From the sequence record PP920550.1: 44,061 nucleotides of DNA; one strand, given 5' to 3'. A model generated the notes under the pieces. That model was given only the letters and a program-made list of their open reading frames with translations, had not been told where the DNA came from and made no database searches. The position numbers were made by a program, and so were the translations under genes. Below are positions 1 through 42,415 of this stretch, piece after piece; within the stretch, counting starts at the first letter, position 1; the number at the start of each line of letters is the position of its first letter. The DNA is from Escherichia phage Dru_SM5.

Positions 1-43
1 ATGTTGCCGATGGTCGGCGCATATGAACAAAAGGGCTTATATC

Positions 44-595
44 ATGGCAGAAATCAAAGTTAAGGGCCGTCGCGCCAAACTGGACGGACGAGTGGCAGTA
101 ACCCCGCGCCGTAAACCAGGCGAGCAAACAGAACATACCAATCTCGGACCTGAGATCGAATATGGCAAGCGTCGTAAAGGCGGCAAATGTGGGCGCCCGA
201 CCGACTACCGCACTGTGTATTGCGACCAGCTTCGCCGCTATTTTGCCGATGCCGTAGCCTGGCAGATCAACTACTCTGACAAGGGGGCCGCGCAAGTCAT
301 TCCCCGGAACAAGATGCCAACCTTCGGCAGATTTGCCGCTGAAATCGGCGTAGGCGTAGCTTGCCTGTACCGCTGGGCGCGAGCACATGAGGAGTTTGCC
401 GAAGCGATGGCGGACGCAATGGAACTGCAGAAAACTTTCCTGATGGAAGCCGGTGGCGTGACCATCGCGGCAGGCTTCGCTACCTTCCTACTTAAAGCTA
501 ACCACGGCGTCCGCGACGATGTACCGCTGGATGACGACGAAGATGATAACGGCGACGTCGTTGTCGAACCTTCCGGCAAAGGCCAGGGTGAATAA
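44..595 (+). CDS. putative terminase small subunit
   Basis: ORF directly upstream of and overlapping by 1 nt the terminase large subunit gene. ATG at 44 follows an AAAAGGG RBS; the track start at 23 has none. Acidic C-terminal tail. Function inferred from position only. Confidence 0.5.
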   Translation: MAEIKVKGRRAKLDGRVAVTPRRKPGEQTEHTNLGPEIEYGKRRKGGKCGRPTDYRTVYCDQLRRYFADAVAWQINYSDKGAAQVIPRNKMPTFGRFAAEIGVGVACLYRWARAHEEFAEAMADAMELQKTFLMEAGGVTIAAGFATFLLKANHGVRDDVPLDDDEDDNGDVVVEPSGKGQGE

Positions 596-1980
596 TGCGT
601 AACTATGCGGCAGAACACCGCGCACTTGAGCGCGCGATTGCAAAGCGCAACCGACCACCGCGCCCGACACGCGTTGCGCAGGCGGTGCGTCTTTACCAGC
701 CTGATTGCCTGCCGCACCAGGTGGAACTACTGCGCGACACAAAGACCAAAATACTCGGCCTGTGTTCCGGCTTCGGTGGCGGAAAGTCATGGGTCGCGGC
801 GCGTAAGGTCATCCAGCTTCTGACACTGAACCCGGGTCATGACGGCATCGTGACCGAGCCGACTATCCCACTCCTGGTTAAAATCATGTATCCGGAACTG
901 GAGAAGGCTTTCGACGAGGCTGGATTCCGGTGGAAGTTCAATAAGCAGGACAAGATTTATAGCGTGCTGGTGAAAGGCAAATGGACTCGCGTTATCTGTG
1001 AGTCAATGGAGAACTATACCCGCCTCATCGGTGTTAACGCCGCGTGGATTGTTGCCGACGAGTTCGATACCACGAAGCAAGACGTTGCGCTGGCGGCGTA
1101 TCACAAATTGCTAGGTCGTCTGCGTGCAGGCTTTGTACGCCAGTTCGTCATCGTGTCCACGCCGGAAGGCTTCCGGGCGATGTATCAGATTTTTGAAGTG
1201 GAGAAGGATAGCCAAAAACGCTTGATCCGGGCGAAGACCACGGACAACCACCATTTACCGGCAGACTTTATCGACACGCTGCGCAGTCAGTACCCGGCTA
1301 ACCTGATAGATGCGTACCTGAACGGCCTGTTTGTTAACCTTACGTCGGGCGCGGTGTACAAGATGTTTAATCGCGAGGAGAACGCCAGCACCGAAGAAGT
1401 ACAACCGGAAGACACGCTGATTATCGGTATGGACTTTAACGTCACGAAAATGGCGGCGGTCGTGTATGTAAGACGGCAGCGTACCACCGAGAACAAGGAG
1501 TTCCGCGACGAGATTCACGCAGTGGATGAATTTGTGGACCTGTTTGATACCCCGGCTATGATTGAGGCGATCGAGGAGCGATACCCCGATCATTGTGCTG
1601 CCGGTCGTGTTGTCGTTTACCCGGATAGCAGCGGCAAGTCTCGCAAGACTGTCAACGCATCATCGTCCGATATAGCGCAACTGGAAGACGCGGGCTTCGA
1701 GGTGGAGTATTACAGTGTTAACCCACCTGTGAAAGACCGATTGATCGCGATGAATACAATGATGTGCAACTCGAAGGGCGTGCGCCAGTATTTTGTCAAC
1801 CTGGATAAATGCCCTACACTAGCGAAATGTCTGGAACAGCAGGTTTACGACCTGAAGAAAGGCGAGCCGGATAAAACCGCCGGTGTGGACCACATGAACG
1901 ATGCCGCGGGCTATCCAATTGCGCATCTGTTCCCAGTGATTCGTCCGATCGCCGTTGTTCCAACTGTAGACTTCTACTAA
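595..1980 (+). CDS. terminase large subunit
   Basis: 461 aa. P-loop-like GFGGGKSW and Walker B-like IVADEFD in the N-terminal half. RBS AGGGTGA. Directly followed by the portal gene. Confidence 0.85.
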   Translation: MRNYAAEHRALERAIAKRNRPPRPTRVAQAVRLYQPDCLPHQVELLRDTKTKILGLCSGFGGGKSWVAARKVIQLLTLNPGHDGIVTEPTIPLLVKIMYPELEKAFDEAGFRWKFNKQDKIYSVLVKGKWTRVICESMENYTRLIGVNAAWIVADEFDTTKQDVALAAYHKLLGRLRAGFVRQFVIVSTPEGFRAMYQIFEVEKDSQKRLIRAKTTDNHHLPADFIDTLRSQYPANLIDAYLNGLFVNLTSGAVYKMFNREENASTEEVQPEDTLIIGMDFNVTKMAAVVYVRRQRTTENKEFRDEIHAVDEFVDLFDTPAMIEAIEERYPDHCAAGRVVVYPDSSGKSRKTVNASSSDIAQLEDAGFEVEYYSVNPPVKDRLIAMNTMMCNSKGVRQYFVNLDKCPTLAKCLEQQVYDLKKGEPDKTAGVDHMNDAAGYPIAHLFPVIRPIAVVPTVDFY

Positions 1981-1990
1981 GGAAACGACC

Positions 1991-3511
1991 ATGACCGTTA
2001 ACGTTGACAACCAGCACCCGCTCTATGCGCGCATCGCGCCAGAGTGGAAAATGATCCGTGACTGTGTAGCAGGGGAGCGCGCCGTGAAGGCGTGCGGCCC
2101 ATTATACCTGCCACACCCAGCCAGTGGCGACAATACTGACCCGAAAGCACGGGCGCGGTATAAGGCGTACAAGCAACGCGCTGTATTCCTGAACGCCACC
2201 GCCCGCACACTTAACGCGCTGTTAGGCGTTGCCTTTGCTAAACCGGTAAGTCTGGACCTTTCCGGGGCGATGGCTGACCTGATTGACGACGTAGACGGCA
2301 GCGGCATGCCGCTGCCGCAACTCCTGCGCGGTGCTATGTCTGAAGTTCTGCAATCAGGTCGTGCGGGCTTTATGGTGGACTACGATCGCCAGGCGCATTT
2401 TGATGAACTGGGTAACGTAGTACCGCAGACAGCCGCTGAGATGGCGTCACATCGCCCGCTTATCCGCCTGTACACGGCAGAACAGATCATCAACTGGCGG
2501 CAGACCCACGGAGTCGATACGCTGATTGTGCTGAAGGAGACGGACGAAATCAGCACCGAAGACCCGGACGACTTCGCAAACCACGAAGTCACAATCTGGA
2601 CTGAATTGCGCATGATTAACGGTGCGGCACACGCCCGCCGCTGGTTTTACAACGCAGACACGTCCGAAGTGCAAATGGACTTGCCGCGTGGATTTACCCG
2701 CACCGACCTTGTGCCGCTGGTGGATGCTGCCGGTAAAGCGCTGACACAACTCCCGTTTTGCTGGTGTGGCGCGGTGGACAACAACGCAACGCCAGACGCC
2801 GCTCCGCTGGCGGATATCGCATCTATCAACATTAAGCACTACAACGCCGAAGCGGACGTCGCCGAGATTGCGCACATCGTGGGCCAACCTACCCTAGTTG
2901 CGACGGGCTTGACCCAATCATGGGCTGACAAAAACCTGAAGGGCGGCATTGCCCTCGGCGCGACTAAGGGTGTTATCCTGGGCCAGAACATGGACGCTAA
3001 ACTGATCCAGGCGGAGGAGCGCAACTTGTCGGTTGCACTGTGTGAGCGTCGCGAATTGCAAATGGCTAAACTTGGTGCGGCCCTGGTTGAGAAGGGGACT
3101 GCACCAAAGACGGCAACTGAAGCGGCCTACGATGCGCAGACTGATAACAGTATCCTGTCGCTTATTGCCGGTAACGTTGAGAAGGCTTTCAACCGTGCGC
3201 TGCAAATCGTCCAGCTATTCACGGGCGACACCGCCGACCAGCGTGTGACGCTGAATAAGTTCTACACCGAAATCACGGTTGATGCGCAGCTTATGACCGC
3301 AATGATGTCGGGTGTACAGACTGGCACGGTCCGCCTGGCTGATTTCATCAAGTGGATGATGGCGCAGGGCGTCATCGACGACTCGCAAACCGTCGAGCAG
3401 GTGGAAGACGAATTGCGAAATCAGAATCCATTGCCTCAAATGTCCCCTGATGCGGTAGAATCTACCGAAGAAGACCCGGACAAGGTAGCGGACAATGGCG
3501 AAGACAATTAA
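1991..3511 (+). CDS. portal protein
   Basis: 506 aa ORF immediately after terL with RBS AAGGAAACG. Acidic C-terminus. Position and size typical of portal. Confidence 0.75.
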   Translation: MTVNVDNQHPLYARIAPEWKMIRDCVAGERAVKACGPLYLPHPASGDNTDPKARARYKAYKQRAVFLNATARTLNALLGVAFAKPVSLDLSGAMADLIDDVDGSGMPLPQLLRGAMSEVLQSGRAGFMVDYDRQAHFDELGNVVPQTAAEMASHRPLIRLYTAEQIINWRQTHGVDTLIVLKETDEISTEDPDDFANHEVTIWTELRMINGAAHARRWFYNADTSEVQMDLPRGFTRTDLVPLVDAAGKALTQLPFCWCGAVDNNATPDAAPLADIASINIKHYNAEADVAEIAHIVGQPTLVATGLTQSWADKNLKGGIALGATKGVILGQNMDAKLIQAEERNLSVALCERRELQMAKLGAALVEKGTAPKTATEAAYDAQTDNSILSLIAGNVEKAFNRALQIVQLFTGDTADQRVTLNKFYTEITVDAQLMTAMMSGVQTGTVRLADFIKWMMAQGVIDDSQTVEQVEDELRNQNPLPQMSPDAVESTEEDPDKVADNGEDN

Positions 3512-4598
3512 TCAATATTTGGCGGATCGCATGATTCGCCGTCACCTCTTCACCCAGCGCCTGAGCAATGACCAGGCGCGAAGGGTGCTGTCCATGTGGG
3601 AGAAGTTCCGGCCCACGTTACTGGGTAAGCTGACCGAGTTACTTGATGGTAAAAAAGCCATGAGCAACAAGGCGCTTACCACACTGTTGACGCAACTCGA
3701 CAAGACCGTTAAAACGGAACTGCGCACCGAGTTTAAGGCGCTGGCTGAAAACCTTCAGGAGTTCGCCGACACCGAGGCTGATTATCTAGCCGATACATTA
3801 ACGGCAGCGATCCAGCCTGCGGTCGCCGTACCGGCTGTTGAGGTTGTGAGCGTTGTAACCGGCGCGCAGATTGCAGCGACGGCAATGAAAAACCCGTTCC
3901 AGGGTAACACCATGATGCAGTGGCCTGACTCACTTTCCGAGTGGACCAGGACGCAGATCGGCAATCAGGTGCGCGCCGGATTCATCCAGGGCAAGCCAAC
4001 GATGGAAATTATCGCGGACGTGAGGCGCGCGCTTGGCGGTCGTAGTGCGCAGGCAATCTCAAGCGTTGTTAAGTCCGCGGTCAACCACTATGCGGCGACC
4101 GCCCGCGAATTAATGGTAAAAGCTAATGATGATATTCTCGAAGGTCGCCAATGGTTATCTACATTGGACACGCATACTTCTCCCATGTGCCAGCTACGCG
4201 ATCGCCTGTTTTATCCTGTTGACGTCACTCCCGACACCAAAGGAAAACGCGGCGGGAAAATGGTGGCTGGGTCACAATATGGCGCTGGTCCGGGCAAGTT
4301 GCATTATTGTTGCCGGTCGACGGAGACGTGGAAGGTTAAAGGCATGGAAGATTGGCCCAGTGGTAAGCGTCCGGCGCTGAAGGCTGACGCGGGCCGATTG
4401 CTGAGTGAGCAGGTGGACGCGCAGACTGATTTCTTCTCATGGGTGCAGCGCCAGCCGCGCCATATCCTGGAAGAATTATACGGAGTGCAACGCGCCGACC
4501 AGATTATGCGCGGCGTGAAAGTGCCGAAGATGTTTACCGATTCTGGCGAACTGATGACTATCGCACAGCTTAAAAACCGGGGGTTATGGCGTGATTAA
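3495..4598 (+). CDS. head morphogenesis / minor head protein (Mu F / SPP1 gp7-like)
   Basis: 367 aa ORF overlapping the portal 3' end by 17 nt. Conserved synteny position after portal. Function by position and size. Confidence 0.6.
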   Translation: MAKTINQYLADRMIRRHLFTQRLSNDQARRVLSMWEKFRPTLLGKLTELLDGKKAMSNKALTTLLTQLDKTVKTELRTEFKALAENLQEFADTEADYLADTLTAAIQPAVAVPAVEVVSVVTGAQIAATAMKNPFQGNTMMQWPDSLSEWTRTQIGNQVRAGFIQGKPTMEIIADVRRALGGRSAQAISSVVKSAVNHYAATARELMVKANDDILEGRQWLSTLDTHTSPMCQLRDRLFYPVDVTPDTKGKRGGKMVAGSQYGAGPGKLHYCCRSTETWKVKGMEDWPSGKRPALKADAGRLLSEQVDAQTDFFSWVQRQPRHILEELYGVQRADQIMRGVKVPKMFTDSGELMTIAQLKNRGLWRD

Positions 4599-4920
4599 AT
4601 ACGCAGCGATTGGGCTGGTTATCGGTCTGGCGGTAGGATTCTGGCTAGGTGACTCCTATCGCGCTGGCGTAGTGGCTGAGGCGGCGCAAGAAGCGCAAGC
4701 CAAAGCCCAACGGCAGCAAACTAAAGTTGTAGAGCGCTCCGTGCAGGCCGAACAAGCCCGCGACGTAGAATACCGGACTATCACGAAAGAGGTTGTTAAA
4801 TATGTTACGCGCACTAACCGCCCTGATTGTAGTTTTGATGCTGAGCGCGTGCGGATCAAGCAACGTGCAGTTGATGCCGCTAACGGAGTCGGCACTGCGA
4901 CCGCCGTGCAAGTTCGATAA
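4591..4920 (+). CDS. putative i-spanin (Rz-like)
   Basis: GTG start after RBS CCGGGGG. N-terminal transmembrane segment IKYAAIGLVIGLAVGFWLG followed by a charged Q/A/E/R-rich periplasmic-type region. Overlaps the lipoprotein ORF in another frame. Confidence 0.5.
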   Translation: MIKYAAIGLVIGLAVGFWLGDSYRAGVVAEAAQEAQAKAQRQQTKVVERSVQAEQARDVEYRTITKEVVKYVTRTNRPDCSFDAERVRIKQRAVDAANGVGTATAVQVR

Positions 4921-5032
4921 CCCGTCCGCAGACCCCGACGAGGATTTGATGATTGATGTGAAAAATATGGAATGCGGGGCGAAGCTGAGGGCGCAGGTCC
5001 TGGAGTTGCAGCAAATAATTAAGGGGCCGTAA
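4793..5032 (+). CDS. putative o-spanin lipoprotein (Rz1-like)
   Basis: RBS GAGG about 10 nt upstream of the ATG. Signal peptide MLNMLRALTALIVVLML with lipobox LSAC, then a short Pro-containing mature region. Starts inside the Rz-like ORF in the +1 frame and extends beyond it. Confidence 0.55.
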   Translation: MLNMLRALTALIVVLMLSACGSSNVQLMPLTESALRPPCKFDNPSADPDEDLMIDVKNMECGAKLRAQVLELQQIIKGP

Positions 5033-5045
5033 TGGCCCCTTTTTG
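5021..5045. terminator. intrinsic terminator hairpin between convergent genes
   Basis: GGGGCC-gtaat-GGCCCC stem-loop followed by TTTTTG. Sits between the + strand spanin genes and the - strand gene ending at 5046. Confidence 0.5.
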
Positions 5046-5810
5046 TTATCGCGGAATACCGCAAATCTCGTTGAGAGTTTTCACATCCAGCGCCACCGCC
5101 GTGGACTTCGGCTTATCCGGGTATGGAATAAACTGTTCAACTTCAGGCCACGCCTTGACCAGCTTCTTATCGGTATTGTGCATATCCAGCACGCCGGTAA
5201 CAGTTAGTTTGAACGCGTCATACTTAGCCCGCAACTCACGGCGGGCCTTGTCGTTACGGTCCAGGCGCTTGCAGAAATCATGGTCCGCAGGGTAGTCTAT
5301 ACGACCGCGTGGCTTATATATCGGCAGCGCTTTCCCTTCATCGTCAACTTCGCACACTGACGCTAACATAATTTCCTCATACCCAGGAACAATATCGCTA
5401 AGATCCGGTGCGAGCTTATTCATATATTTGTCTTCCCAGTATCCGCGGTGTTGGCGGAATCTTAGCCCGTCACCACTCAATGATAGGGTACGAACATTAC
5501 CGCCTGCGTTGATTTCGAAAGTGGCGTCGTAAACGCAGCCGATACCATACGGGCGATCGGAGTCGAAACGATACGTCGCTTTGTCGGTGTAAACGCTAAC
5601 GCCGTACATCTGCGACTGGTTGTCGCGGATTAACCGGATGTGCTCGAGTAGCTCGGCGAATGTGCGAATGCCTTCCGGCATACAGTCAAGCGTGATTGCG
5701 TACGCCAGATCGCGTGAGTCCACCATGATTTGTTTGGCTTCGGTTGCGATTTCGTGGTCGCGCAGGATGTTAGCCAGAATCTGATTTTTAATGTCTTTTG
5801 TCAGTCTCAT
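5046..5810 (-). CDS. hypothetical protein (reverse-strand insert in head module)
   Basis: Track ORF 5046..5897; internal ATG at 5810 chosen because it follows an AAGAGGA RBS (255 aa). No recognisable motif. Confidence 0.6.
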   Translation of the reverse strand: MRLTKDIKNQILANILRDHEIATEAKQIMVDSRDLAYAITLDCMPEGIRTFAELLEHIRLIRDNQSQMYGVSVYTDKATYRFDSDRPYGIGCVYDATFEINAGGNVRTLSLSGDGLRFRQHRGYWEDKYMNKLAPDLSDIVPGYEEIMLASVCEVDDEGKALPIYKPRGRIDYPADHDFCKRLDRNDKARRELRAKYDAFKLTVTGVLDMHNTDKKLVKAWPEVEQFIPYPDKPKSTAVALDVKTLNEICGIPR

Positions 5811-5824
5811 TTTTGTGTCCTCTT

Positions 5825-5986
5825 TTAGTGGTTGTATAATTCGCCGCGTGCGTCGGCATCTTCCATTTGGTGTAGTGCGTGTTTCTGGTCCTGGCAAGGA
5901 ATCCAGCGTTCCTCTAATTTATGCCAGAAGTAAAACACCCCGTTATCCAGCTTAATCTCGGCAATACCGTTATTGAAAGTTAGCAT
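5825..5986 (-). CDS. hypothetical small protein
   Basis: Track ORF 5825..6040; ATG at 5986 follows a GAGGG RBS (53 aa). First gene of the reverse-strand pair. Confidence 0.4.
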   Translation of the reverse strand: MLTFNNGIAEIKLDNGVFYFWHKLEERWIPCQDQKHALHQMEDADARGELYNH

Positions 5987-6052
5987 TTTGTTACCCTCAT
6001 TGGTTGGTATGCAACCAATATATTGCAACCAATCCACCAATGCAAGCGAATT

Positions 6053-6080
6053 TTGCGATTATTTTTATCGCTGATAATAT
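6053..6080 (+). promoter_or_regulatory. candidate sigma70-type promoter for scaffold/capsid operon
   Basis: TTGCGA, 16 nt spacer, TAATAT, about 55 nt upstream of the ATG at 6136. Preceded by a cluster of GCAACCAAT motifs (5998-6046). Confidence 0.35.
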
Positions 6081-6135
6081 TAGAGGCGTGAAGTCGAGCG
6101 GGTGGCCTGCTCTGCCACAATCCCAGGGGGATAGC

Positions 6136-6837
6136 ATGAAACTTACTAAAGCAGAATATGACGCGTTGCCAGAAGGCATGAAGGCCTTATTTGTTGCCGA
6201 TGGTGACGGGTATAAATCAACGTTCATGACCGCAGAAGAAGTACAGGCGGAAATCAAGGGTCTGAAAGACAACAACGCGAAGCTGGTGAGCGAGAAGAAA
6301 GCAGAAGCCGAACGCCGCGCCGAAGCTGAGCGACTTGCGAAAGAGAAAGAGGAAGCCGCCGCGCGCAAAAATGGCGACCTCGAAGCGATCGACAAGTCCT
6401 GGAAAGATAAGTTTGCGAAACACGAAGCAGACACATCGGGAAAAATCGAAGCCTACCGCAAGCAGATCCACGACCTAACCATCGGCAGCGCTGCCAAAGA
6501 CCTGGCATCGAAGCTGTTCGGTAAGAATGCGGGCATCATGCAACGCCACGTAATGGATCGCCTGACGCTGGAAGACGGCGAAGACGGCAGCTTGAAAGTG
6601 CGTGTCTTGCAGGATGGCAAACCGTCCGCGCTGACTATGGAAGAGCTTGAAAAAGAGTTCCGTAATAACGCCGATTTTGCATCCGTCCTGGCTGGCACGC
6701 CAGCCGGTGGCGCGCCTAGCAAACCGACGCAGGTTGTCGAAGATGTGAAGTCGAAAATCACTATGGGCCATAGCTTCGGTATCACTGACCTTACGAAACA
6801 GGCAGGTGAAATCATCGCGAAGATGGGCGACGAGTAA
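6136..6837 (+). CDS. putative head scaffolding protein
   Basis: Track ORF starts at 6004; ATG at 6136 follows an AGGGGGA RBS. Charged, A/E/K-rich coiled-coil-like composition. Sits immediately upstream of the major capsid gene. Confidence 0.55.
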   Translation: MKLTKAEYDALPEGMKALFVADGDGYKSTFMTAEEVQAEIKGLKDNNAKLVSEKKAEAERRAEAERLAKEKEEAAARKNGDLEAIDKSWKDKFAKHEADTSGKIEAYRKQIHDLTIGSAAKDLASKLFGKNAGIMQRHVMDRLTLEDGEDGSLKVRVLQDGKPSALTMEELEKEFRNNADFASVLAGTPAGGAPSKPTQVVEDVKSKITMGHSFGITDLTKQAGEIIAKMGDE

Positions 6838-6934
6838 GCAGATCGCCCGCGAAAGCGGGCGATTTTGCTAGCGCGGAAATCTAAGGTAACATTAACGTCA
6901 CTGGGCGAATGCTCACAACTCAAAGGATTTCGAT

Positions 6935-8035
6935 ATGTCTTTAACAGTGTTCCAGCGTAAACTCGTTACCGCGGTTACGCAAATGATCCCCGACAACCTG
7001 AACGTTTTCAACGCCGCCGCCAATGGCGCTGTTGTTCTCGGTACTGGTGAAGTGCTGAAGGACGTTATTGAGAAAATGTCCGTAGGCTTGATCGCCAACC
7101 TCGTTACCGACCGTAACGCCTACGCCCCTGTCGGCACTCCGGCAACCGCGAAAGTTCTGGCGCGTATGCTGACCAACTCGGTTAACCTTTCCGCAAAAGT
7201 GGGTCCGGTAGCAATCACTAAGGCTATGATGGCTAAGATCGAAACCAACGTTAACAGCGTTGCGGCTGAGATTGCGGCACAGGCTACTCAAGCGATTATG
7301 CTGCACTACCTGAAAGCTGGTATCGGCGCAAGTAAAGCGGCGATCGAAAGCAACGCAGCGGCAAAATACACCCAACCGGCGCGCGTTGACGGCGTTGGTG
7401 GTCGTACCTTCCCGACCCTGGCAGACTTCCCGCTGGCGGCTTCTAAGTTCGGCGATCAGGCGTCTTTGATTAAGTCCTGGTTTATGGACGGCGTTACCTG
7501 GGCAAACTTCATTGCGTACCAGGCACTCCCTTCCGCTGAACAGGTATTCGCAATTGGCGATCTACAGGTAATGGGTGATGGCCTGGGCCGACGATTCATT
7601 ATCTCCGATGCCGCTGCCGATGCTATGGGCGCTGGTAACATGCTGGGTCTGGTTCCTGGCGCGGTTGCAGTTACCACCAACGGCCTCGATATGCTGGCGC
7701 AGGAGAAAGGCGGTAACGAGAACATCGAACGCTGGTGGCAGGGCGAGTTCGACTTCAACGTGGCCGTTAAAGGCTACCGTCTGAAGGCGTCCGCTCGTAC
7801 CCCGATCGAAGGTGTGCGCTCGTTCAAACTGGACGATATTACCACTTCCGCTAACTGGGAACTGGACCAGGGCCAGGTAGACAACGCACCGGCAACCGTG
7901 CAGGACGTTGGCGCTGTGGGTGATGGCGATACTAAAGGTCGTCGTAAGACCCAGGCTGCACAGGCAGTGCCTACCCGTCACATCAAGGAAACCGCTGGCG
8001 TACTGGTTACGCTGACTGCGACTACCGCGTCTTAA
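6935..8035 (+). CDS. major capsid protein
   Basis: 366 aa ORF with RBS AAAGGA, followed by a strong terminator. Position after scaffold. Ala/Gly/Val-rich composition typical of capsid proteins. Confidence 0.7.
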   Translation: MSLTVFQRKLVTAVTQMIPDNLNVFNAAANGAVVLGTGEVLKDVIEKMSVGLIANLVTDRNAYAPVGTPATAKVLARMLTNSVNLSAKVGPVAITKAMMAKIETNVNSVAAEIAAQATQAIMLHYLKAGIGASKAAIESNAAAKYTQPARVDGVGGRTFPTLADFPLAASKFGDQASLIKSWFMDGVTWANFIAYQALPSAEQVFAIGDLQVMGDGLGRRFIISDAAADAMGAGNMLGLVPGAVAVTTNGLDMLAQEKGGNENIERWWQGEFDFNVAVKGYRLKASARTPIEGVRSFKLDDITTSANWELDQGQVDNAPATVQDVGAVGDGDTKGRRKTQAAQAVPTRHIKETAGVLVTLTATTAS

Positions 8036-21831: not shown

Positions 21832-21852
21832 AAAGCCCCGAAAGGGGCTTAT
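21832..21852. terminator. bidirectional terminator hairpin
   Basis: AGCCCC-gaaa-GGGGCT with flanking A/T runs, between convergent genes. Confidence 0.45.
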
Positions 21853-22067
21853 TTGCAGGTTGTGCTTTTGAAGTGGTCGACCGACACATACTGGAAGTTG
21901 AATGGGTATCCCGCCCGTAACATTTTATGACCGCTAACGTCTGCAACCCCAAACACAGGGACGGAATACTCCACGCCACTATTCATGTATGTCGCGTCGC
22001 AGACTTTAGTCGGCATGTTGGCACAACCCGACAAAAGAACCCCACAAATCATAATTAAAGTTTTCAT
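21849..22067 (-). CDS. small lipoprotein, candidate Llp/Cor-like superinfection exclusion protein
   Basis: ATG at 22067 follows an AGGAGA RBS. Signal peptide MKTLIMICGVLL with lipobox LSGC; about 55 aa mature, Cys-containing. Reverse-oriented next to the tail fiber gene. Confidence 0.5.
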   Translation of the reverse strand: MKTLIMICGVLLSGCANMPTKVCDATYMNSGVEYSVPVFGVADVSGHKMLRAGYPFNFQYVSVDHFKSTTCK

Positions 22068-33639: not shown

Positions 33640-35062
33640 TGCTTAAGTCCTCGTCAGTAGCTTCCGACCACGCAGGGCGCGGGTCGTCGATTGGTGCTAA
33701 CACCGGTTTGGCTGGTGCGCGCGTGATTTTATCACACAGCTTCGCCCACACTTTCGGTTTTTCGTCCTTCAGTACCTTCTCGGCATCCGTAGGGCTGAGC
33801 AATGTTTCTTTGTACATCACATCGCGCTTGATCCGGGCCTTCGTGAAGATTTCAATAACTTCGCTCTCGTCCGCCCACTTACGGATCCCTTCCTTACCGG
33901 CAACCATCTTGAGGCCCAGCGATTCGCCATCGCCCGCCATTACCGCTTTGAATACCGCGGACTCGATAGCTTTGATGTGCTGGCGCATTGCGTCCAGGCC
34001 TTCATAAGCCTTGCGCAGTTCCGCAGCGCTCATAGCGCCTGGGGCCGCTTCTTTCTTGCCACGCTTCGCACGTCGTGCCGCTTTGCGGGCTTCGCGGGCC
34101 ATATTGCGGTCGTGATTGGCGCATTCTTCCTCTGTCGCAATACTTACGTCGTCGCCCAGGTCTTCGTCTGTTGCCGTTGGTGGGGTCATCGTGTCGATTG
34201 CAGCCTTAGCGCGGGCGCTACACTGATCCGCAAATCTGCACCACTGACACGCATCAACGCTCGGTCGGAAGTCGGCACGGGTGAGTCCCTTTTTGCCGCG
34301 GGCGTACGCTTCCAGGGCGGCGATAGCACGCTTTGACGCAAACTTAGCGAATATCTCCAGGGCTTCTACCGAAATATCCCACTCCGACGCCCCGCCGCAA
34401 TACGGCTGGAAGATAACCAGGCGCACGGTCGTGATGTCGTACATGGATTGCAGCTTGCGCAGCAGGCCGAGCGCGTACAACATAAGCTGTTTGTTTTCTT
34501 TCGCCTCGACCTTATGCCGCCCGGTCTTCAGGTCGCCAACAATCAGCATGTACGTGCCGTCGGTCTTCTTCATGACCATGACCATATCCGCAGTGCCGAA
34601 CGTCTTAACCCGGTTGCCGTCGATCTCGAAGCCAGAGTGTAGGACGCGGGTGAGATCGGCGCGCATCTCAAGCTGAACAAACTCCGCCACTTCGAGGAGC
34701 GGTCGCCAGTGGTCGATGTACGCGTCGCACTGTTTCACCATGTCGTCGTTGACCAGTACGCCGCCTTTCGGTGCTTTCGGGTGGGCCTTTACAGGCCCCT
34801 TACCTTCGTTCTCGACGTAACACCCTTTGTACGTCTTAGCGGTTATCAGCTTCTCACCGGCGATAATACGGTTGAGCACGACTTCAGATACGGTGTGCAT
34901 ACTCGTACCGTTAATCGCCGCTTGCCCGGATTCGTTCGGGATACCCTGTTCTACCACCAGGGCGGCGGGGCAACCCATCCATTTTTTAGCACCGGATGGC
35001 CCGAGTAATGAATGTTCCGTATTACTACCGGATTGTGTTTTGCGCTTCGGTTTAATCGCCAT
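33632..35062 (-). CDS. PD-(D/E)xK nuclease with Fe-S Cys cluster (Cas4/RecB-like)
   Basis: 476 aa. N-terminal Cys (WMGCPA), PD-(D/E)xK-like core (GTADMVMV...IVGDLKTG...QLMLYALG), and C-terminal Cys triad CQWCRFADQC typical of 4Fe-4S Cas4-family nucleases. Long charged C-terminal extension. Confidence 0.55.
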   Translation of the reverse strand: MAIKPKRKTQSGSNTEHSLLGPSGAKKWMGCPAALVVEQGIPNESGQAAINGTSMHTVSEVVLNRIIAGEKLITAKTYKGCYVENEGKGPVKAHPKAPKGGVLVNDDMVKQCDAYIDHWRPLLEVAEFVQLEMRADLTRVLHSGFEIDGNRVKTFGTADMVMVMKKTDGTYMLIVGDLKTGRHKVEAKENKQLMLYALGLLRKLQSMYDITTVRLVIFQPYCGGASEWDISVEALEIFAKFASKRAIAALEAYARGKKGLTRADFRPSVDACQWCRFADQCSARAKAAIDTMTPPTATDEDLGDDVSIATEEECANHDRNMAREARKAARRAKRGKKEAAPGAMSAAELRKAYEGLDAMRQHIKAIESAVFKAVMAGDGESLGLKMVAGKEGIRKWADESEVIEIFTKARIKRDVMYKETLLSPTDAEKVLKDEKPKVWAKLCDKITRAPAKPVLAPIDDPRPAWSEATDEDLSNE

Positions 35063-35250
35063 TATTCCACCCTTGAAAATTGAGCAATGTAATAATCGTG
35101 TTCAACATTGGCCCGCTTCGCGGCATTGTTCATGGTAGCCGCCAGTCCTCGAGCTTGCATCCAGCAGCAATTCCAGTTTTGATCCATAACGATTTCTGGT
35201 TGCTCGTCGCCGGTAATACGGCAACGAAATAAAACAAAGAATATAGCCAT
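35062..35250 (-). CDS. hypothetical protein
   Basis: 62 aa ORF in a tightly packed operon; start/stop overlaps with neighbours. Confidence 0.35.
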   Translation of the reverse strand: MAIFFVLFRCRITGDEQPEIVMDQNWNCCWMQARGLAATMNNAAKRANVEHDYYIAQFSRVE

Positions 35251-35550: not shown

Positions 35551-36066
35551 TTAATCTTCCAGTTCGAAATAGGTTTCGACGATTTCTTTTAGCTCTGTGT
35601 GGAAGTCTTCGACGTCGTCATCTTCCAGCTTGGCGATTGATTTGATCTCGAACGATTCCAGCAGGTCGTCGAATTCGTCGTTCGCATCGTCGTCGTCACC
35701 ACCGGCAATAATCGCGGCATACTGTTTGATCTCGTCGCGCATCTCTGCCAGCGGATCGGCATCTTTCTTGCCTTTGCCTTTTGCCGGTGCTTTTTTAGAC
35801 TTAGCCGGTTTTTCATCTTCGGCATCGTCGTCTTCTTCTTCTACGACTTCTTTTTTGGCCTTACCCTTCGCCGGTGCTTTTTTAGCTTTAGCCGGTTTTT
35901 CGTCTTCGGCGTCATCGTCGCCATCTTCGACAACTTCTTTTTTGGCCTTAGACGGCTTCTTGTCTTCCTGCTTACCAACGGCAGCGCCAACGGTTTCATA
36001 ATGCTTTGCAATGGTTTCCAGTGCTACTACGCCGCGAGTGATCAGGTTTACGATTTGCTCAAACAT
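35551..36066 (-). CDS. zwitterionic repeat protein (first gene of leftward early operon)
   Basis: ATG at 36066 follows a GGAGA RBS (171 aa). Two tandem roughly 30 aa repeats of KKEVVE-DDDAEDEKPAK-KKAPAKGK-KK, encoded by roughly 99 bp tandem DNA repeats (about 35765-35960). Highly acidic C-terminus. Confidence 0.6.
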   Translation of the reverse strand: MFEQIVNLITRGVVALETIAKHYETVGAAVGKQEDKKPSKAKKEVVEDGDDDAEDEKPAKAKKAPAKGKAKKEVVEEEDDDAEDEKPAKSKKAPAKGKGKKDADPLAEMRDEIKQYAAIIAGGDDDDANDEFDDLLESFEIKSIAKLEDDDVEDFHTELKEIVETYFELED

Positions 36067-36406
36067 GGTATATCTCCGATTGGTTAAGTTTAGGTGTCGG
36101 CAGTTAACTTCGTCGGTGGCCTTAACATATTGCCAGGTTACGCGTTCTCCCGTTCGGGTAGTGGACCTGGTTATATAATCACGGTTGGGAATCCTGACAC
36201 TTCGATCCGTCCCCTGCGTTGCCCCTCTCCAGTTTGCGTCCTGCATCCTGTCGACGGAGTGAATGATAGATTGGTTGCAGGATGGGTGTCAACAACTAAT
36301 TTCAAAAAAAAGCGCCGAGGCAAAATGCACCGGCGCTAACCAATAAGAGACAATGAGACGGGAGTATTATTACACGCGTGCGCGCCCGTTTCAATATCCA
36401 AAGGAT

Positions 36407-36435
36407 TTGACACCGTGCAGTTTTGGGTGTAGTTT
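36407..36435 (+). promoter_or_regulatory. candidate rightward early promoter with operator-like palindrome
   Basis: TTGACA, 17 nt spacer, TAGTTT, followed by inverted repeat GTTGGT-catca-ACCAAC (36436-36452) and RBS CAGGAGA before the ATG at 36467. Confidence 0.45.
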
Positions 36436-36466
36436 CGTTGGTCATCAACCAACAGGAGACTGAATT

Positions 36467-36796
36467 ATGAATATCAAAGAAGCAATTGAAGTGTTATCTA
36501 ATGCAATCCGCGGCGAAGCGGGTAAATCCTGGTATTACACAAATGCGGTGGATACTCTGTTATTTGAAGTGTCCAGATTATCGCGTGCGGAGAAGGAGCT
36601 TACCGCGAAGCTGGAATTGCTCAACGGCACGGCAGCAAGCAAGCTGCAAAAACACAATGAAGAAATGGAAGAATACAAAAAGCAGGTTATCCGTTTGCGC
36701 AATGAGGGAAAGTCATGGGCAATGATCGCCGAGTTAACCGGAATTAATCAGAGCACAGTGCGCTCCTGGGTACGCAATAATAAAACTTCTAAGTAA
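36467..36796 (+). CDS. HTH DNA-binding protein (putative transcriptional regulator)
   Basis: 109 aa with a C-terminal helix-turn-helix-like segment GKSWAMIAELTGINQSTVRSWV. First gene after the early promoter. Confidence 0.55.
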   Translation: MNIKEAIEVLSNAIRGEAGKSWYYTNAVDTLLFEVSRLSRAEKELTAKLELLNGTAASKLQKHNEEMEEYKKQVIRLRNEGKSWAMIAELTGINQSTVRSWVRNNKTSK

Positions 36797-36806
36797 GGCC
36801 ACGGCA

Positions 36807-39071: not shown

Positions 39072-39182
39072 ATTCTGCGCGCATTGGTTGCCGATATGGG
39101 AATTCCCATATCGCTAAACGATTAATTTGTGCGCGTATTGGTTGCCATTTTGCGTGTTTTTATCTGGTCGTATTGGTTGCCG
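39066..39182 (+). repeat. direct repeats flanking a perfect 22-bp palindrome (origin- or operator-like)
   Basis: 27 bp direct repeats at 39066-39092 and 39120-39146 (GATTAAATTCTGCGCGCATTGGTTGCC and a near copy), a partial third at 39170-39182, and the perfect palindrome CGATATGGGAATTCCCATATCG at 39092-39113. Confidence 0.7.
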
Positions 39183-39206
39183 TGTAGTGTAAATATAATG
39201 AATAGT

Positions 39207-39393
39207 TATGCAGTTTTATTGCATAAAGTAAGCGGGACAGAAAGCGGGACAAACAAGAGGCGGGACAAAGCGGGACAGCACCCCCGTCCCGCCCCGGATG
39301 ACGCGGCCTGGCGAGGAGCGGGACAGGCGGGACAAACCCAAGTCTTTCAGACTAGACGGGGGTCCATGGCCCCCCTCGTCTGAGACTGAATAA
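39207..39393 (+). repeat. GGGACA-iteron + GC-hairpin element, copy B
   Basis: About 187 bp paralog of 11735-11923: TATGCAG..TGCATAAA, four CGGGACA iterons, two more, then a near-identical conserved hairpin block. A TATAAT box at 39195-39200 sits just upstream. Confidence 0.8.
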
Positions 39394-39548
39394 AATCCGG
39401 GGATTGCAAAATACACGGCAGCATGATGCGAAGGGCGGTCGTCGATGAACCAGGCAACCAATGCGGGTTGCATTATGCTGAGTGAAAAATGCAGTTTGCA
39501 GTTGCAGCAGATAGCGATCAACTTTTTCATGCGCGTGATTAATATTGG

Positions 39549-39577
39549 TTGCATTCAGCCTGGAGCCTTGATATATT
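39549..39577 (+). promoter_or_regulatory. candidate promoter for the 39606 operon
   Basis: TTGCAT, 17 nt spacer, TATATT, then RBS ATGAGGA and the ATG at 39606. The -35 hexamer lies inside an ATTGGTTGCAT motif. Confidence 0.4.
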
Positions 39578-39605
39578 GGTTGCACACCAACATGAGGACT
39601 GAACA

Positions 39606-39932
39606 ATGAGAGCGATTATCTGGAATTACGCAATGGCTATGGCGGCGGCACAAGAAGCGGCGGAGTTCGCCGGTGAAGGAGCGGAAGCGGTCGAAAGACT
39701 ATCGGCAGCGTGGTCCGTTGTTCGCGTTACGCAGCAGGCCATCGCCTGTATGCTGGAGCGCCGCTTCGACACTATGGCAGAGATTCAGCCACTGGCGAAC
39801 GCTATCCAGGATTACGCGCTTGCCTTTGCCCGTGAGCGCCTGGCGTATCGCTTCGGGATCGGCGAGACGGCAGTGACTAACGTCGCCCGGATTAAAGCCC
39901 AGCGTGAGCTATTCTCCCAGCTTGCGAAATAA
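39606..39932 (+). CDS. hypothetical protein
   Basis: 108 aa with RBS ATGAGGA. Ala-rich. Confidence 0.55.
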   Translation: MRAIIWNYAMAMAAAQEAAEFAGEGAEAVERLSAAWSVVRVTQQAIACMLERRFDTMAEIQPLANAIQDYALAFARERLAYRFGIGETAVTNVARIKAQRELFSQLAK

Positions 39933-39941
39933 GAGGCCAAA

Positions 39942-40211
39942 ATGACCCGTAGACGCGCAAAACAGCTTTCGTGGCATATTCCCCTGCATTGCATACGAAT
40001 ATGGGCTAAGAATGCGAATGCGGGGGATTCTGTATTCTGGTGTTATCGCGACGACGTTAAGCCGTTGACGCAGACTCGCTACTTGCACCAGTTCGCAGCA
40101 CAACACGATTTCAGGGTGCGGACTTCCTTGCAACCAATGGGGATTCGTATTACATTACGCCGAAAGCCCGCCATTGAGCGGGTAGGCAAACACTGGAGAC
40201 TGAGCAAATGA
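39942..40211 (+). CDS. hypothetical protein
   Basis: 89 aa basic protein; its stop overlaps the next ATG. Confidence 0.45.
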   Translation: MTRRRAKQLSWHIPLHCIRIWAKNANAGDSVFWCYRDDVKPLTQTRYLHQFAAQHDFRVRTSLQPMGIRITLRRKPAIERVGKHWRLSK

Positions 40212-40360
40212 CACCAATGCAAATAACGCTAATGGCAGGGTATTCGCAGCAATTCGTAGACCTGTTATCTTGCATTGCGGACTATGAGATGGACGGCATC
40301 GCTACGGTGTGCGATGGCGACACGAAGACTGTCGACGAGATTGAGGAGACTGAGCAATGA
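40208..40360 (+). CDS. small acidic hypothetical protein
   Basis: 50 aa ORF (MTPMQITLMAGYSQQF...EIEETEQ). Below the track cut-off; ATGA overlaps at both ends. Start context GGAGACTGAGCAAATG is repeated before the next gene. Confidence 0.35.
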   Translation: MTPMQITLMAGYSQQFVDLLSCIADYEMDGIATVCDGDTKTVDEIEETEQ

Positions 40361-40943: not shown

Positions 40944-41064
40944 GTGCGACGATCCGCGATATGCTTCAGCATAACCGCTTTGAGATAGGCGGTCGGGTAT
41001 TTCGCAATTACTTCGTGGCGCGGGCATGGGCGCGCCATATTGGCAAACCAGAGGGGGCAATACG

Positions 41065-41352: not shown

Positions 41353-41404
41353 ATACGCAAGCGTGATATAGTCCCAGTGAGCTAAAACTTACTGGGACTT
41401 TTTT

Positions 41405-41695
41405 ATGGATAAGCTAAACGAGTGGTTATTCGCCCTTGCGTGTCTTGCTGGTGGCTTCGTGGGCGCACGCATTCACGGCGAGGCAACGAAAGGGCCGTTG
41501 AACTTCGTTTTATATGTCGTAGTTGGCTTCCTGTGCGCCATATTTGGTGCGCCAGCCATTGCCGAGTGGTCTGGTTTGTCCGGTGAGCGCACTGTCGCCG
41601 GTTTGGGCTTCGTAACTGCAATCTTCTGGATGCCAATAGCCGCCCGGATCAGGGAGACTATTGAGTCGTTCCGACTTCCGGGGGGCGCAAAATGA
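41405..41695 (+). CDS. putative holin
   Basis: 96 aa with about three hydrophobic TM segments and a charged C-terminus. Two genes upstream of the endolysin. Confidence 0.55.
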   Translation: MDKLNEWLFALACLAGGFVGARIHGEATKGPLNFVLYVVVGFLCAIFGAPAIAEWSGLSGERTVAGLGFVTAIFWMPIAARIRETIESFRLPGGAK

Positions 41696-41937
41696 TTATC
41701 TCCGTCCTGTTGTTTGTTATCATAGGGGCTTCGTCCCTGTTTAACGTGTATGCGCCGTCCGTCCAGGATGGCATTTTAGGCCGGGTGCTATATCTGCTAA
41801 CGGCGATGATCTGCGTTGTCGGATTGTTGCAAACAGGAGACGTATCTGACACCACCTGGACCGCGTTAATCTGGCTGTTTGCATTGCGCACACTGCGTAA
41901 TGCTGTTTTGAATGGGGTAAAACATGCGATTCAGTGA
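41692..41937 (+). CDS. putative holin/antiholin-like membrane protein
   Basis: 81 aa with 2-3 TM segments. Overlaps neighbours; directly upstream of the endolysin. Confidence 0.5.
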   Translation: MIISVLLFVIIGASSLFNVYAPSVQDGILGRVLYLLTAMICVVGLLQTGDVSDTTWTALIWLFALRTLRNAVLNGVKHAIQ

Positions 41938-42415
41938 CAACGGTCTGAGATTTACGGCAGCATGGGAGCAATTCAGCCCAGTGCCGTATTTCGCGACTAA
42001 GAAAGAGCAGGCCCGCGGCCTGTATACCTGGGGCTATGGTCACACCGGCACTAATCCGCCGCGGAGCATTACCCGTGCGGAAGCACTGGAGCTACTCAAG
42101 CGCGACGTGGCGTATGCCGAGAACTGGGTAAACAAGTACGCACACCCGAGCATTAATCAGGCGCAATTCGACGCGCTGGTGGACCTGGTTATCAATGCCG
42201 GTCCAGGTCCGATCATGCCGGACGACGTCGCCGGTGACTTCGACGATGCGATCCGCCTGGGTGACTGGGCAAAGGTCCGTGCTACGCTGCCACAATTCCG
42301 CAAGCAAGGCGGGGCAGTGCTCAAGGGGCTTGTCCGTCGTGCAATCGGCAGGCAGGCACTATTTGATGGTAAGCAGTGGGACGTTGCCGAGAAAATCGGA
42401 CGTAACGCAGCATAA
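41924..42415 (+). CDS. endolysin (lysozyme-like muramidase)
   Basis: 163 aa. N-terminal region with a conserved Glu (AWEQF) and a TWGYGHTG segment resembling the lysozyme/GH24-like fold. Follows holin-like genes. Confidence 0.65.
   Translation: MRFSDNGLRFTAAWEQFSPVPYFATKKEQARGLYTWGYGHTGTNPPRSITRAEALELLKRDVAYAENWVNKYAHPSINQAQFDALVDLVINAGPGPIMPDDVAGDFDDAIRLGDWAKVRATLPQFRKQGGAVLKGLVRRAIGRQALFDGKQWDVAEKIGRNAA

Follow-up and report, generated by a model that had tools for sequence, protein, structure and literature searches.

A probable two-component spanin of the Jersey overlapped family, encoded apart from the holin-endolysin cassette in Escherichia phage Dru_SM5

The experimentally defined prototype of the two-component spanin is the Rz/Rz1 pair of phage lambda (Pfam PF03245 and the Rz1 lipoprotein), in which a type II inner-membrane protein and an outer-membrane lipoprotein encoded in the +1 frame, both with periplasmic Cys, act after the holin and endolysin. 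The Rz1 gene is wholly embedded in Rz, and both lie directly beside the endolysin gene R. T4 and T7 have already made it textbook knowledge that lysis genes can be noncontiguous. The T7 spanins gp18.5/gp18.7 are a precedent for spanins unlinked from the endolysin, with genes located between the small and large terminase genes, and the T4 spanins pseT.3/pseT.2 (117 and 83 aa) are not near t and e (PMC6139136). We applied the criteria for two-component spanins given by Summer et al. 2007 and Kongari et al. 2018, the latter including at least 1 periplasmic Cys for intermolecular disulfides (PMC6139136). Kongari et al. 2018 placed EK99P-1, EP23, HK578, JL1, SSL-2009a, and SO-1 in the Jersey i- and o-spanin families and described the Dhillonvirus i-spanin subfamily as short with 2 predicted helices (PMC6139136).

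We analyzed a window of 44,061 nt (PP920550.1), the whole stretch of DNA under study, which is a complete Dhillonvirus genome with 92% identity to EK99P-1 across the compared 2.7-kb region (3400-6100). The phage is an ordinary member of the HK578/EK99P-1-like virulent E. coli siphophages. Two overlapping genes (Table 1) encode, with a probability of about 0.93, the Dhillonvirus two-component spanin of the Jersey overlapped spanin family. This reading is well supported because both proteins matched PHROG spanin families (2536 and 5672) and because distant homologues lie directly after holin-holin-endolysin genes. All sequence-level defining features of spanins were present, and the Cys positions relevant to disulfide formation (C80 in the i-spanin, C36 and C58 in the o-spanin) were all invariant. 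The i-spanin matched phrog_2536, labelled "Rz-like spanin," with E = 1.4e-35, and the o-spanin matched phrog_5672 (E = 2.4e-26). Besides these 2 families, the pair had weaker matches to 3 other spanin PHROGs; for the o-spanin, phrog_1267 gave E = 9.6e-12. PHROG labels are themselves transferred annotation. The Dhillonvirus subfamily, equivalent to PHROG 2536 plus PHROG 5672, has the same overlapped architecture, short i-spanin, 2 conserved o-spanin Cys, and position after the head-morphogenesis gene, with no difference of substance beyond T75 (i-spanin) and Q23 (o-spanin) in this isolate, where relatives carry P at both sites.

Table 1. Features of the spanin locus, the lysis cassette, and the interval between them
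Feature	Coordinates	Strand	Details and basis
i-spanin gene	4591..4920	+	GTG start, 109 aa; ORF list, phrog_2536, KD hydropathy, pN/pS
o-spanin gene	4802..5032	+	76 aa, +1 frame; lipobox scan, phrog_5672, pN/pS, conserved residues
Two-frame overlap	4802..4920	+	119 nt; coordinates
Overlap of i-spanin start codon with stop codon of head-morphogenesis gene (3495-4598)	4591..4598	+	8 nt, GTGATTAA; sequence
G+C-rich hairpin followed by T-run	5021..5041		AAGGGGCC-GTAAT-GGCCCCTT; best match on both strands, terminator scan
Holin	41405-41695	+	PHROG match
Second holin	41692-41937	+	PHROG match
Soluble lysozyme-type endolysin	41924-42415	+	PF00959, PHROG match
Terminator-like hairpins bracketing the holin-endolysin cassette	41370-41399 and 42600-42621		Hairpin scan
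Conserved or matched genes between endolysin and spanins			orf53, exonuclease-like gene, TerS, TerL, portal, head morphogenesis
Unsupported small ORF between endolysin and spanins	42630/42690-42770		

The N-terminal transmembrane helix that the first-pass annotation had assigned to the i-spanin ORF was recovered in the KD scan as hydrophobic sequence spanning residues 1-22 (best 17-aa window at 4-20, mean KD 1.95), the sole such segment in the protein, and it is kept in homologues in the alignment. It is followed by a predicted periplasmic domain of 89 aa, charged and rich in Ala and Gln, with C80 invariant across Dhillonvirus, Guernseyvirinae, and lambdoid homologues; the orientation would be type II, N-in/C-out. 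Since the AF2 model was computed from the single sequence with low confidence (mean pLDDT 60.7, pTM 0.23), its helices at 5-75 and 84-97 hint at helical or coiled-coil character, in agreement with the 2 helices predicted for the subfamily. A G-rich Shine-Dalgarno sequence lies upstream of the start codon, and the 8-nt overlap with the preceding stop codon was identical in 17/17 Dhillonvirus sequences (this genome and 16 relatives), a layout compatible with translational coupling to the head-morphogenesis gene.

The longer form of the o-spanin ORF (4793/4802-5032, + strand, +1 frame) carries MLRALTALIVVLMLSAC and the lipobox LSAC. We confirmed the lipoprotein, frame, and lipobox described earlier for this ORF and moved its start, as the conserved start codon is ATG 4802, with an AAGAGG Shine-Dalgarno sequence 9 nt upstream, and 1 relative has an in-frame TGA where TTG stands at 4793 here. 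The protein has an SPII signal peptide, MLRALTALIVVLMLSA, which together with the following Cys matches the lipobox pattern [LVI][ASTVI][GAS]C, a Cys17 predicted to be lipidated, and a mature domain of 60 aa. No hydrophobic segment was found past the signal peptide. The lipobox Cys was invariant in 7 divergent homologues and in the 17 Dhillonvirus sequences. In E. coli lipoprotein sorting, Asp at +2 is the Lol-avoidance signal, and lipoproteins without it go to the outer membrane; the mature N-terminus here is CGSS, with Gly at +2 and no Asp. The mature domain includes the 2 conserved periplasmic Cys and a DEDL motif, and C17, C36, C58, and D46-L49 were invariant in the homologue alignment. 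The lipobox Cys, the 2 periplasmic Cys of the o-spanin, and the 1 of the i-spanin did not vary among the homologues from Dhillonvirus, Kagunavirus, Jerseyvirus, and lambdoid phages.

Comparison with the prototype showed the same logic at the level of architecture and no shared family at the level of sequence. Whereas the lambda Rz1 gene is embedded, the o gene here is overlapped and extends past the i stop, and the penta-proline stretch of Rz1 is absent, the mature o-spanin having only a PP dipeptide, in RPPC. Neither protein matched a spanin model in Pfam (E <= 0.1) or NCBIfam, the weak NCBIfam matches being to lipoprotein signal peptides only. The hhalign probability was 1% against lambda Rz and 19% against Rz1, with alignments covering only the N-terminal membrane-anchor or signal-peptide region, and comparisons with Rz/Rz1 and T7 gp18.5/gp18.7 (probabilities 1-45%) revealed no homology past that region. 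The term "Rz/Rz1-like," which had been applied to the pair at first, therefore holds as an architectural description and not as sequence membership. The T7 spanins are embedded and those of T4 separated, and their sequence families differ from the overlapped pair described here, which resembles the T4 proteins in its small size. The sole hhalign match outside the N-terminal region was an 8-residue alignment to T7 gp18.5 at 2% probability.

Beyond Dhillonvirus, we identified homologues of both proteins in Guernseyvirinae, including gp07/gp08 of Jerseyvirus vB_SenS-Ent2 and ORF5/ORF6 of Kagunavirus K1G, and the spanins align with these family members at 35-48% identity by tblastn and 37-42% in multiple alignments. 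In Guernseyvirinae, too, the spanins belong to the head module: the gene for the SPP1 gp7-like head protein lies on one side, the scaffold and major capsid genes on the other, and holin-holin-endolysin is about 7.6 kb off across the origin of the circular map. They differ in having a longer i-spanin (128 aa vs 109 aa here), whose gene is set apart from the head-morphogenesis gene by a Hoc-like or "tail" gene plus about 300 nt of gap, and therefore no start-stop overlap exists there. More distant homologues of both proteins (about 31-39% identity) directly follow holin-holin-endolysin in 2 lambdoid contigs from IMG/VR, follow an endolysin fragment at the contig start in a third, and in temperate Klebsiella phages (for example, Klebsiella phage 2 LV-2017, KY271396) the homologue abuts a "lysozyme." These lambdoid and Klebsiella pairs belong to the same PHROG families and have the same overlapped architecture, but they lie directly after the endolysin with a start-stop overlap, whereas about 6.2 kb intervenes here.

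The canonical position of these homologues bears on whether the pair could instead act in the envelope outside lysis, for example in superinfection exclusion or receptor masking as an inner-membrane protein with a lipoprotein partner, and be located away from the lysis cassette for that reason. Phages of this group do encode small exclusion lipoproteins, for example, Cor at 21849-22067, and the pair does not adjoin the endolysin. In the papers examined, we found no report of an experimental test of this sequence family (complementation, deletion phenotype, or lipidation), and the assignment of function therefore draws on architecture, context, and annotation. Such a role is nevertheless very unlikely, given that canonical holin-holin-endolysin cassettes end with homologues of the pair in lambdoid contigs and temperate Klebsiella phages, that the overlapped i/o architecture and conserved periplasmic Cys are spanin hallmarks (PMC6139136), and that a phage minus this pair would be without an outer-membrane disruption function.

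A role in head assembly or in the virion, with the transmembrane and lipobox features incidental, we consider less credible still. It would fit the site inside the head module, between head-morphogenesis and scaffold genes, and the start-stop overlap with the SPP1 gp7-like head-morphogenesis gene, and some GenBank records loosely call neighboring genes "capsid and scaffold." Against it, the lipobox Cys and N-terminal hydrophobic helix persist in homologues with as little as about 30-40% identity, other phages have the same proteins beside the endolysin, distant from head genes, and the PHROG matches are all to lysis families, with no head-family match. The proteomics paper on EE09 (PMC10673088) does not mention spanins.

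The overlap seen in the first inspection of the ORFs was borne out and is of the overlapped type, in which the i gene comes first and the o gene begins 119 nt before the i stop and reaches 112 nt past it; the shared segment codes for the o-spanin signal peptide and linker and for the i-spanin C-terminus. Both ORFs were intact in 17/17 Dhillonvirus sequences, the sample also used for pN/pS. In the i-only part, pN/pS was 0.17 in the i frame vs 1.25 and 2.05 in the control frames, and in the o-only part 0.12 in the o frame vs 4.5 and 4.7, with values in the overlap of 0.32 (i frame), 0.88 (o frame), and 3.7 (third frame). These ratios indicate that both ORFs are real genes under purifying selection and not chance ORFs. 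Antisense ORFs of 79 and 139 aa, open here, were interrupted by stops in divergent relatives. That only 1 of the 2 ORFs is real and the other a chance open frame inside or beside it is scarcely tenable, for although chance-open overlapping frames are frequent in G+C-balanced DNA, as the antisense ORFs illustrate, and the RefSeq o-gene was called at a shorter, different start, the segments private to each ORF show low pN/pS with control frames >1, both frames stay intact while the antisense ORFs gain stops, and each ORF has its own Shine-Dalgarno sequence and its own PHROG family.

The arrangement has been annotated, catalogued, and published before, and the novelty implied by the first-pass annotation needs correction. 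In RefSeq, gp05 and gp06 of EK99P-1 (NC_024783), to which the i-spanin and o-spanin are 98-99% and 92% identical, are labelled "Rz-like spanin" at the same position; a 2019 genome announcement described the spanins as lying apart from holin and endolysin; and the arrangement is in print in PMC6139136, PMC6763661, and PMC12677095. The pair carries little weight beyond annotation quality. There, many public records leave it "hypothetical" or start the o-spanin at an internal Met, as in EK99P-1 gp06, so that the lipobox is lost from the record, and automated searches for spanins that are keyed to endolysin proximity would miss the family.

The lysis functions had been described as split by about 37 kb. 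The split itself stands, with the spanin pair in the head/packaging module off the holin-endolysin cassette, and is shared by Dhillonvirus relatives and Guernseyvirinae with the same synteny, as had been proposed for checking; the scale of 37 kb applies to the linear record only. Packaging in these phages is headful, with circular assemblies and a circularly permuted genome (PMC9022532), and we found no terminal direct repeat at either end of the 44,061-nt record. The 37-kb spacing arises because this circularly permuted genome was opened at the terminase gene; closing the circle at the arbitrary ends leaves a gap of 44061-42415+4590 = 6.2 kb, and the cassette and the spanins are thus truly separated by about 6 kb, taken up by packaging and head genes. 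Ten differently permuted contigs showed the order holin-holin-endolysin, then TerS-TerL-portal-head morphogenesis-spanins, unbroken, with the endolysin 5.1-6.9 kb upstream of the spanins on the same strand. The spanin genes still lack direct adjacency to the endolysin (endolysin end at 42415, i-spanin start at 4591) and do not form the canonical contiguous cassette. Seven listed ORFs lie between them, 6 of which are conserved or family-matched, and the interval also contains terminator-like hairpins, at 42600-42621 and 43995-44015. Distances read off the linearized map of a circularly permuted phage can thus mislead.

The position of the holin and endolysin genes, 41405..42415, agreed with the earlier reading, with matches to phrog_2359, phrog_2508, and phrog_7. 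Together with the spanin, the 2 holins and endolysin would complete the lysis set of the phage. We searched for other spanin or disruptin candidates near the cassette and in the rest of the genome. The 53-aa ORF at 42432 (orf53, 42432-42593), already said to have no transmembrane segment or lipobox, indeed lacked both, is acidic, and was discarded. A 26-aa hydrophobic ORF at 42690-42770 was discarded as well: it had no PHROG match, and the gap from orf53 to the next gene differs in length among relatives. We also rejected the lipobox matches at 626-823 and 34872-35138, each of which falls within a larger gene read in another frame or from the opposite strand; the match at 21849-22067(-) is the Cor superinfection-exclusion protein, the only other lipoprotein ORF outside a larger gene in the lipobox scan of this genome. 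No ORF in this genome combines an N-terminal lipobox with a C-terminal transmembrane domain as in a unimolecular spanin of the T1 gp11 type.

By analogy with the model established for lambda Rz/Rz1, the 109-aa protein would insert in the inner membrane via its N-terminal helix, N-in and C-out, with its largely helical domain projecting into the periplasm. Signal peptidase II would process the 76-aa protein, with lipidation at Cys17, and the lipoprotein would go to the outer membrane, since its +2 residue is Gly and not Asp. The 2 C-terminal regions may then bind, with the conserved Cys forming intermolecular disulfides, to give a complex spanning the periplasm through the peptidoglycan mesh. 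Once the holins (41405-41937) release the endolysin (41924-42415) and murein is degraded, spanin complexes would be freed to disrupt the outer membrane, probably by fusion with the inner membrane, completing lysis. As the last genes of the same-strand run, which the circular or concatemeric map places about 6.2 kb downstream of the endolysin, the spanins would be made with late structural proteins, so physical linkage to the holin-endolysin cassette would not be needed.

The spanins are the last 2 genes of a same-strand run comprising TerS, TerL, portal, head morphogenesis, and spanins. The hairpin at their end overlaps the o-spanin stop codon, hairpin and T-run are kept in all relatives, and the structure looks like a bidirectional intrinsic terminator closing this run. 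A scan for sigma-70 promoters across 1-7000 and 36000-44061 was no richer in matches than shuffled sequence, with none convincing, and transcription units were therefore delineated from hairpins only; spacing and hairpins are consistent with co-transcription of the spanins with head genes. As terminal cistrons of the packaging/head run, the pair combines the overlap with the stop of the SPP1 gp7-like gene in Dhillonvirus with closure by the conserved, apparently bidirectional terminator. This placement at the end of the run has been inherited throughout Dhillonvirus and Guernseyvirinae. That it was functionally selected rather than a historical accident seems doubtful to us; if it was, it could tie spanin dosage and timing to virion production, uncoupled from the terminator-bracketed holin-endolysin unit. 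In 3 relatives, the spanin genes showed 80-86% identity vs 96-100% for flanking head genes, and they appear to form a set of alleles that recombine and, locally, evolve fast.

The window is collinear with Escherichia phage EK99P-1 (NC_024783, 44,332 bp), starting at base 1 and offset by 33 bp, and is therefore a complete Dhillonvirus genome opened just 5' of the small terminase gene. A megablast search with 3400-6100 returned 157 phage records, nearly all from Escherichia siphophages of this genus, 135 of which had at least 80% query coverage and 80-95% identity. On the opposite strand, an insert at 5046-6040 (-) that separates the spanin terminator from the scaffold gene comprises an Nmad5 gene ("nucleotide modification associated domain 5," PF18757, E = 4.8e-56) and a 71-aa ORF. 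As the Nmad5 gene had no tblastn match in 4 relatives (IMG/VR contigs L007, L011, L015, and L016), this site is a variable slot within an otherwise conserved head module.

Coordinates of genes, gene blocks, and terminator-like hairpins in the window
Feature	Coordinates	Strand	Remarks
TerS	23-595	+	
TerL	595-1980	+	
Portal	1991-3511	+	
SPP1 gp7-like head morphogenesis	3495-4598	+	
Strong terminator-like hairpin	5021-5041	scores on both strands	overlaps o-spanin stop codon; kept in all relatives
Two minus-strand genes		-	between spanin pair and scaffold gene
Scaffold gene	ORF 6004-6837	+	synteny with annotated relatives
Major capsid gene	6935-8035	+	synteny with annotated relatives
Gene run without annotation, presumably tail genes	to ~23.5 kb	+	
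Cor superinfection-exclusion lipoprotein	21849-22067	-	72 aa, MKTLIMICGVLLSGC...; phrog_1119, E = 1.9e-27
Minus-strand genes	after the + strand run ending at ~23.5 kb	-	
Block containing lysis cassette	36467-43974	+	
Strong terminator-like hairpin with T-run	41370-41399	+	
Holin	41405-41695	+	phrog_2359
Holin	41692-41937	+	phrog_2508
Soluble lysozyme-type endolysin	41924-42415	+	phrog_7; PF00959, 73.5 bits
orf53	42432-42593	+	53 aa, acidic; phrog_11068 (function unknown)
Strong terminator-like hairpin with T-run	42600-42621	+	
Strong terminator-like hairpin with T-run	43995-44015	+	

The first-pass annotation had described an overlapping i-spanin/o-spanin pair within the head module. The ORF at 4591-4920 (+) is present as claimed, with a GTG start, a G-rich Shine-Dalgarno sequence before it, and an 8-nt overlap (GTGATTAA) with the stop codon of the head-morphogenesis gene. 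Its 109-aa product has the N-terminal transmembrane helix that had been proposed, the sole hydrophobic stretch being residues 1-22 (best 17-aa window 4-20, mean KD 1.95), followed by an 89-residue domain rich in Ala, Gln, and charged residues with 1 Cys. A single-sequence AlphaFold2 model placed helices at 5-75 and 84-97 with low confidence (pLDDT 60.7). The second ORF, in the +1 frame, had been given as 4793-5032; its frame and lipobox LSAC stood, but the start codon needs correcting, the conserved one being ATG 4802 rather than TTG 4793. The TTG position is an in-frame TGA in the relative L018, and AAGAGG, a Shine-Dalgarno sequence, lies 9 nt 5' of the ATG. The ORF 4802-5032 shares 119 nt with the i-spanin ORF and runs 112 nt past its end. 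Its product begins MLRALTALIVVLMLSA/CGSS (slash, predicted cleavage site), with a classical predicted signal peptidase II signal and Gly at +2, and the mature protein of 60 aa has 2 further Cys.

Both frames were analyzed for selection in a gap-free alignment of the window and 16 Dhillonvirus loci (15 IMG/VR and GenBank Opt212), in which both ORFs were intact in 17/17 sequences. Nei-Gojobori pN/pS in the i-only segment was 0.17 in the i frame vs 1.25 and 2.05 in the other frames, and in the o-only segment 0.12 in the o frame vs 4.5 and 4.7. Within the overlap, the values were 0.32 (i frame), 0.88 (o frame, where this part encodes the tolerant signal peptide), and 3.7 (third frame). The antisense ORFs 4645-5064 and 4656-4895 gained stop codons in divergent relatives. 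Together, intactness, low pN/pS in the own frames, and the broken antisense ORFs show both ORFs to be real genes, far beyond chance expectation.

Both proteins matched "Rz-like spanin" PHROGs rather than virion-assembly families: phrog_2536 for the i-spanin (E = 1.4e-35, with weak matches to 2 other i-spanin PHROGs), and phrog_5672 (E = 2.4e-26) and phrog_1267 (E = 9.6e-12) for the o-spanin. As PHROG labels are transferred annotation, we turned to genomic context for evidence independent of them. Homologues of both proteins (31-39% identity), with the genes overlapped in the same way, occur in 3 lambdoid-type IMG/VR contigs (L020-L022). Contigs L021 and L022 have the pair right after 2 holins (phrog_198, phrog_217) and a phrog_181 endolysin, and in L022 endolysin and pair share a start-stop overlap; the start of contig L020 lies inside the endolysin gene. 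In temperate Klebsiella phages (KY271396, for example), 62-65% identical homologues of the lambdoid version adjoin a "lysozyme." Alignments of Dhillonvirus, Kagunavirus K1G, Jerseyvirus vB_SenS-Ent2, and the lambdoid contigs contained 4 invariant Cys (the lipobox Cys, 2 periplasmic o-spanin Cys, and 1 i-spanin Cys), and the same alignments conserved DEDL in the o-spanin and VKY...R..C.F in the i-spanin. The pair has all the sequence-level features of a predicted two-component spanin, and the earlier interpretation proved correct at that level.

Membership in the lambda Rz/Rz1 or T7 families by sequence was ruled out: Pfam and NCBIfam scans of both proteins gave no spanin match, and hhalign probabilities against these families were 1-45%, mostly in the N-terminal anchor or signal-peptide region only. 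"Rz/Rz1-like" would thus denote architecture and presumed mechanism, not family membership.

The spanin pair is a known feature, with existing annotation, a catalogue entry, and treatment in the literature. RefSeq EK99P-1 gp05 and gp06, at exactly the same position, are "Rz-like spanin," and Opt212 gp63 is a "putative o-spanin"; in many other records the pair is labelled "hypothetical." A second, shorter subfamily ("EP23 to SO-1"), with 2 helices in the i-spanin, is distinguished by Kongari et al., who also describe 2 conserved cysteines in the o-spanin (PMC6139136); this subfamily corresponds to Dhillonvirus phages. A Dhillonvirus paper assigns holins to genes 31 and 32, endolysin to gene 33, and spanin to gene 40 (PMC12677095). 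For EK99P-1 gp06 (52 aa; 2975-3133 of locus L001, equivalent to window 4874-5032), an internal Met was taken as the start, which leaves out the signal peptide and lipobox. With only 47 positions, the phrog_5672 profile aligns to residues 32-76 of the full o-spanin and no others; this points to wrong start calls in many of the family's deposited o-spanins.

In 3 relatives (L010, L016, and L017; 8001-8442, in L016 4623-5064), the i-spanin is 84-86% and the o-spanin 80% identical, far more divergent than the portal, head-morphogenesis, and scaffold proteins (96-100%). These relatives have a common 102-aa i-spanin allele and a VYRPPCTFENAS o-spanin variant, and the divergence looks like a mosaic, co-varying allele set.

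The holin and endolysin genes were found where the first-pass annotation had placed them, and orf53 has neither hydrophobic segment nor lipobox, as noted there, and was ruled out as a spanin. It lies directly 3' of the endolysin gene, before a strong hairpin, has a PSPPPPEDPEV tail, and is present in most relatives. A lipobox scan of the whole window found only 1 further candidate outside larger genes, on the opposite strand between the + strand ORFs of the 20.8-23.5 kb region; this belongs to the Cor family, was rejected as a spanin, and is the only other credible lipoprotein in the genome. With these 2 ORFs set aside, 4591-5032 is the sole spanin candidate in the genome.

Separation of the pair from the lysis cassette was confirmed, but its proposed 37 kb holds only in linear record coordinates, an artefact that arises when a circularly permuted genome is shown as a linear map. 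Dhillonvirus assemblies are circular, with headful packaging according to PhageTerm predictions, and maps are by convention opened at the small terminase gene (PMC9022532); no terminal repeat was found at the window ends. Across these ends, the endolysin-to-spanin gap is 44061-42415+4590 = 6.2 kb. Relatives keep the arrangement: in 10 IMG/VR contigs opened elsewhere (L007-L010, L012, L014, L015, and L017-L019), the genes follow each other without a break on a single strand, in the order holin, holin, endolysin, orf53, (exonuclease-like gene), TerS, TerL, portal, head morphogenesis, i/o-spanin, with an endolysin-to-spanin distance of 5.1-6.9 kb. The DNA-repair-exonuclease-like gene (380 aa, 42832-43974 (+), phrog_704, E = 6.9e-162) sits between lysis cassette and TerS with terminator-like hairpins on its flanks; it is absent from L012 and L014, where the distance is therefore shorter (5.1-5.6 kb).

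The 3 T-run hairpins that bracket the holin-endolysin-orf53 unit and the exonuclease-like gene are suggestive of multiple short late transcription units or of read-through under regulation; a convincing sigma-70 promoter was not found near them. As the most economical reading, we infer 2 distinct late transcription units, holin-endolysin and TerS-to-spanin, the latter ending in the spanin cistrons.

Following the lambda Rz/Rz1 paradigm (PMC6139136), the predicted i-spanin would have its anchor in the inner membrane and the lipidated o-spanin would be fixed in the outer one; the periplasmic domains of the two would bind, and disulfide-linked dimers would thread the mesh of murein. After endolysin release by the holins and removal of the murein, the freed complexes would disrupt the outer membrane, probably by fusion with the inner membrane. 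Spanins do no harm while the murein is in place, so they would have to be expressed late but need not be linked to the endolysin. Classical precedents for unlinked spanins are T4 pseT.3/pseT.2, "not located near" t and e (PMC6139136), and T7 18.5/18.7, between terminase subunit genes 18 and 19.

A tblastn search with the i-spanin found it in 597 phage records. In the Guernseyvirinae K1G and vB_SenS-Ent2, the head module likewise contains homologous spanins, with the SPP1 gp7-like head gene and a Hoc-like gene on one side and the scaffold and major capsid genes on the other. The circular K1G record has 2 holins and the endolysin at 39608-40644 and spanins at 4663-5158, 7.6 kb apart across the origin, with synteny as in the window. 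Identity between Dhillonvirus and Guernseyvirinae is 53% for TerL, 29-31% for portal, and 24-27% for head-morphogenesis proteins. Given this synteny and homology, the pair has travelled with the head module since before the 2 groups diverged. In vB_SenS-Ent2 (NC_023608), an "amidase" gene of opposite orientation (1138-1788 (-) of locus L004) separates the portal gene from the head-morphogenesis gene, ~2 kb upstream of the spanin pair.
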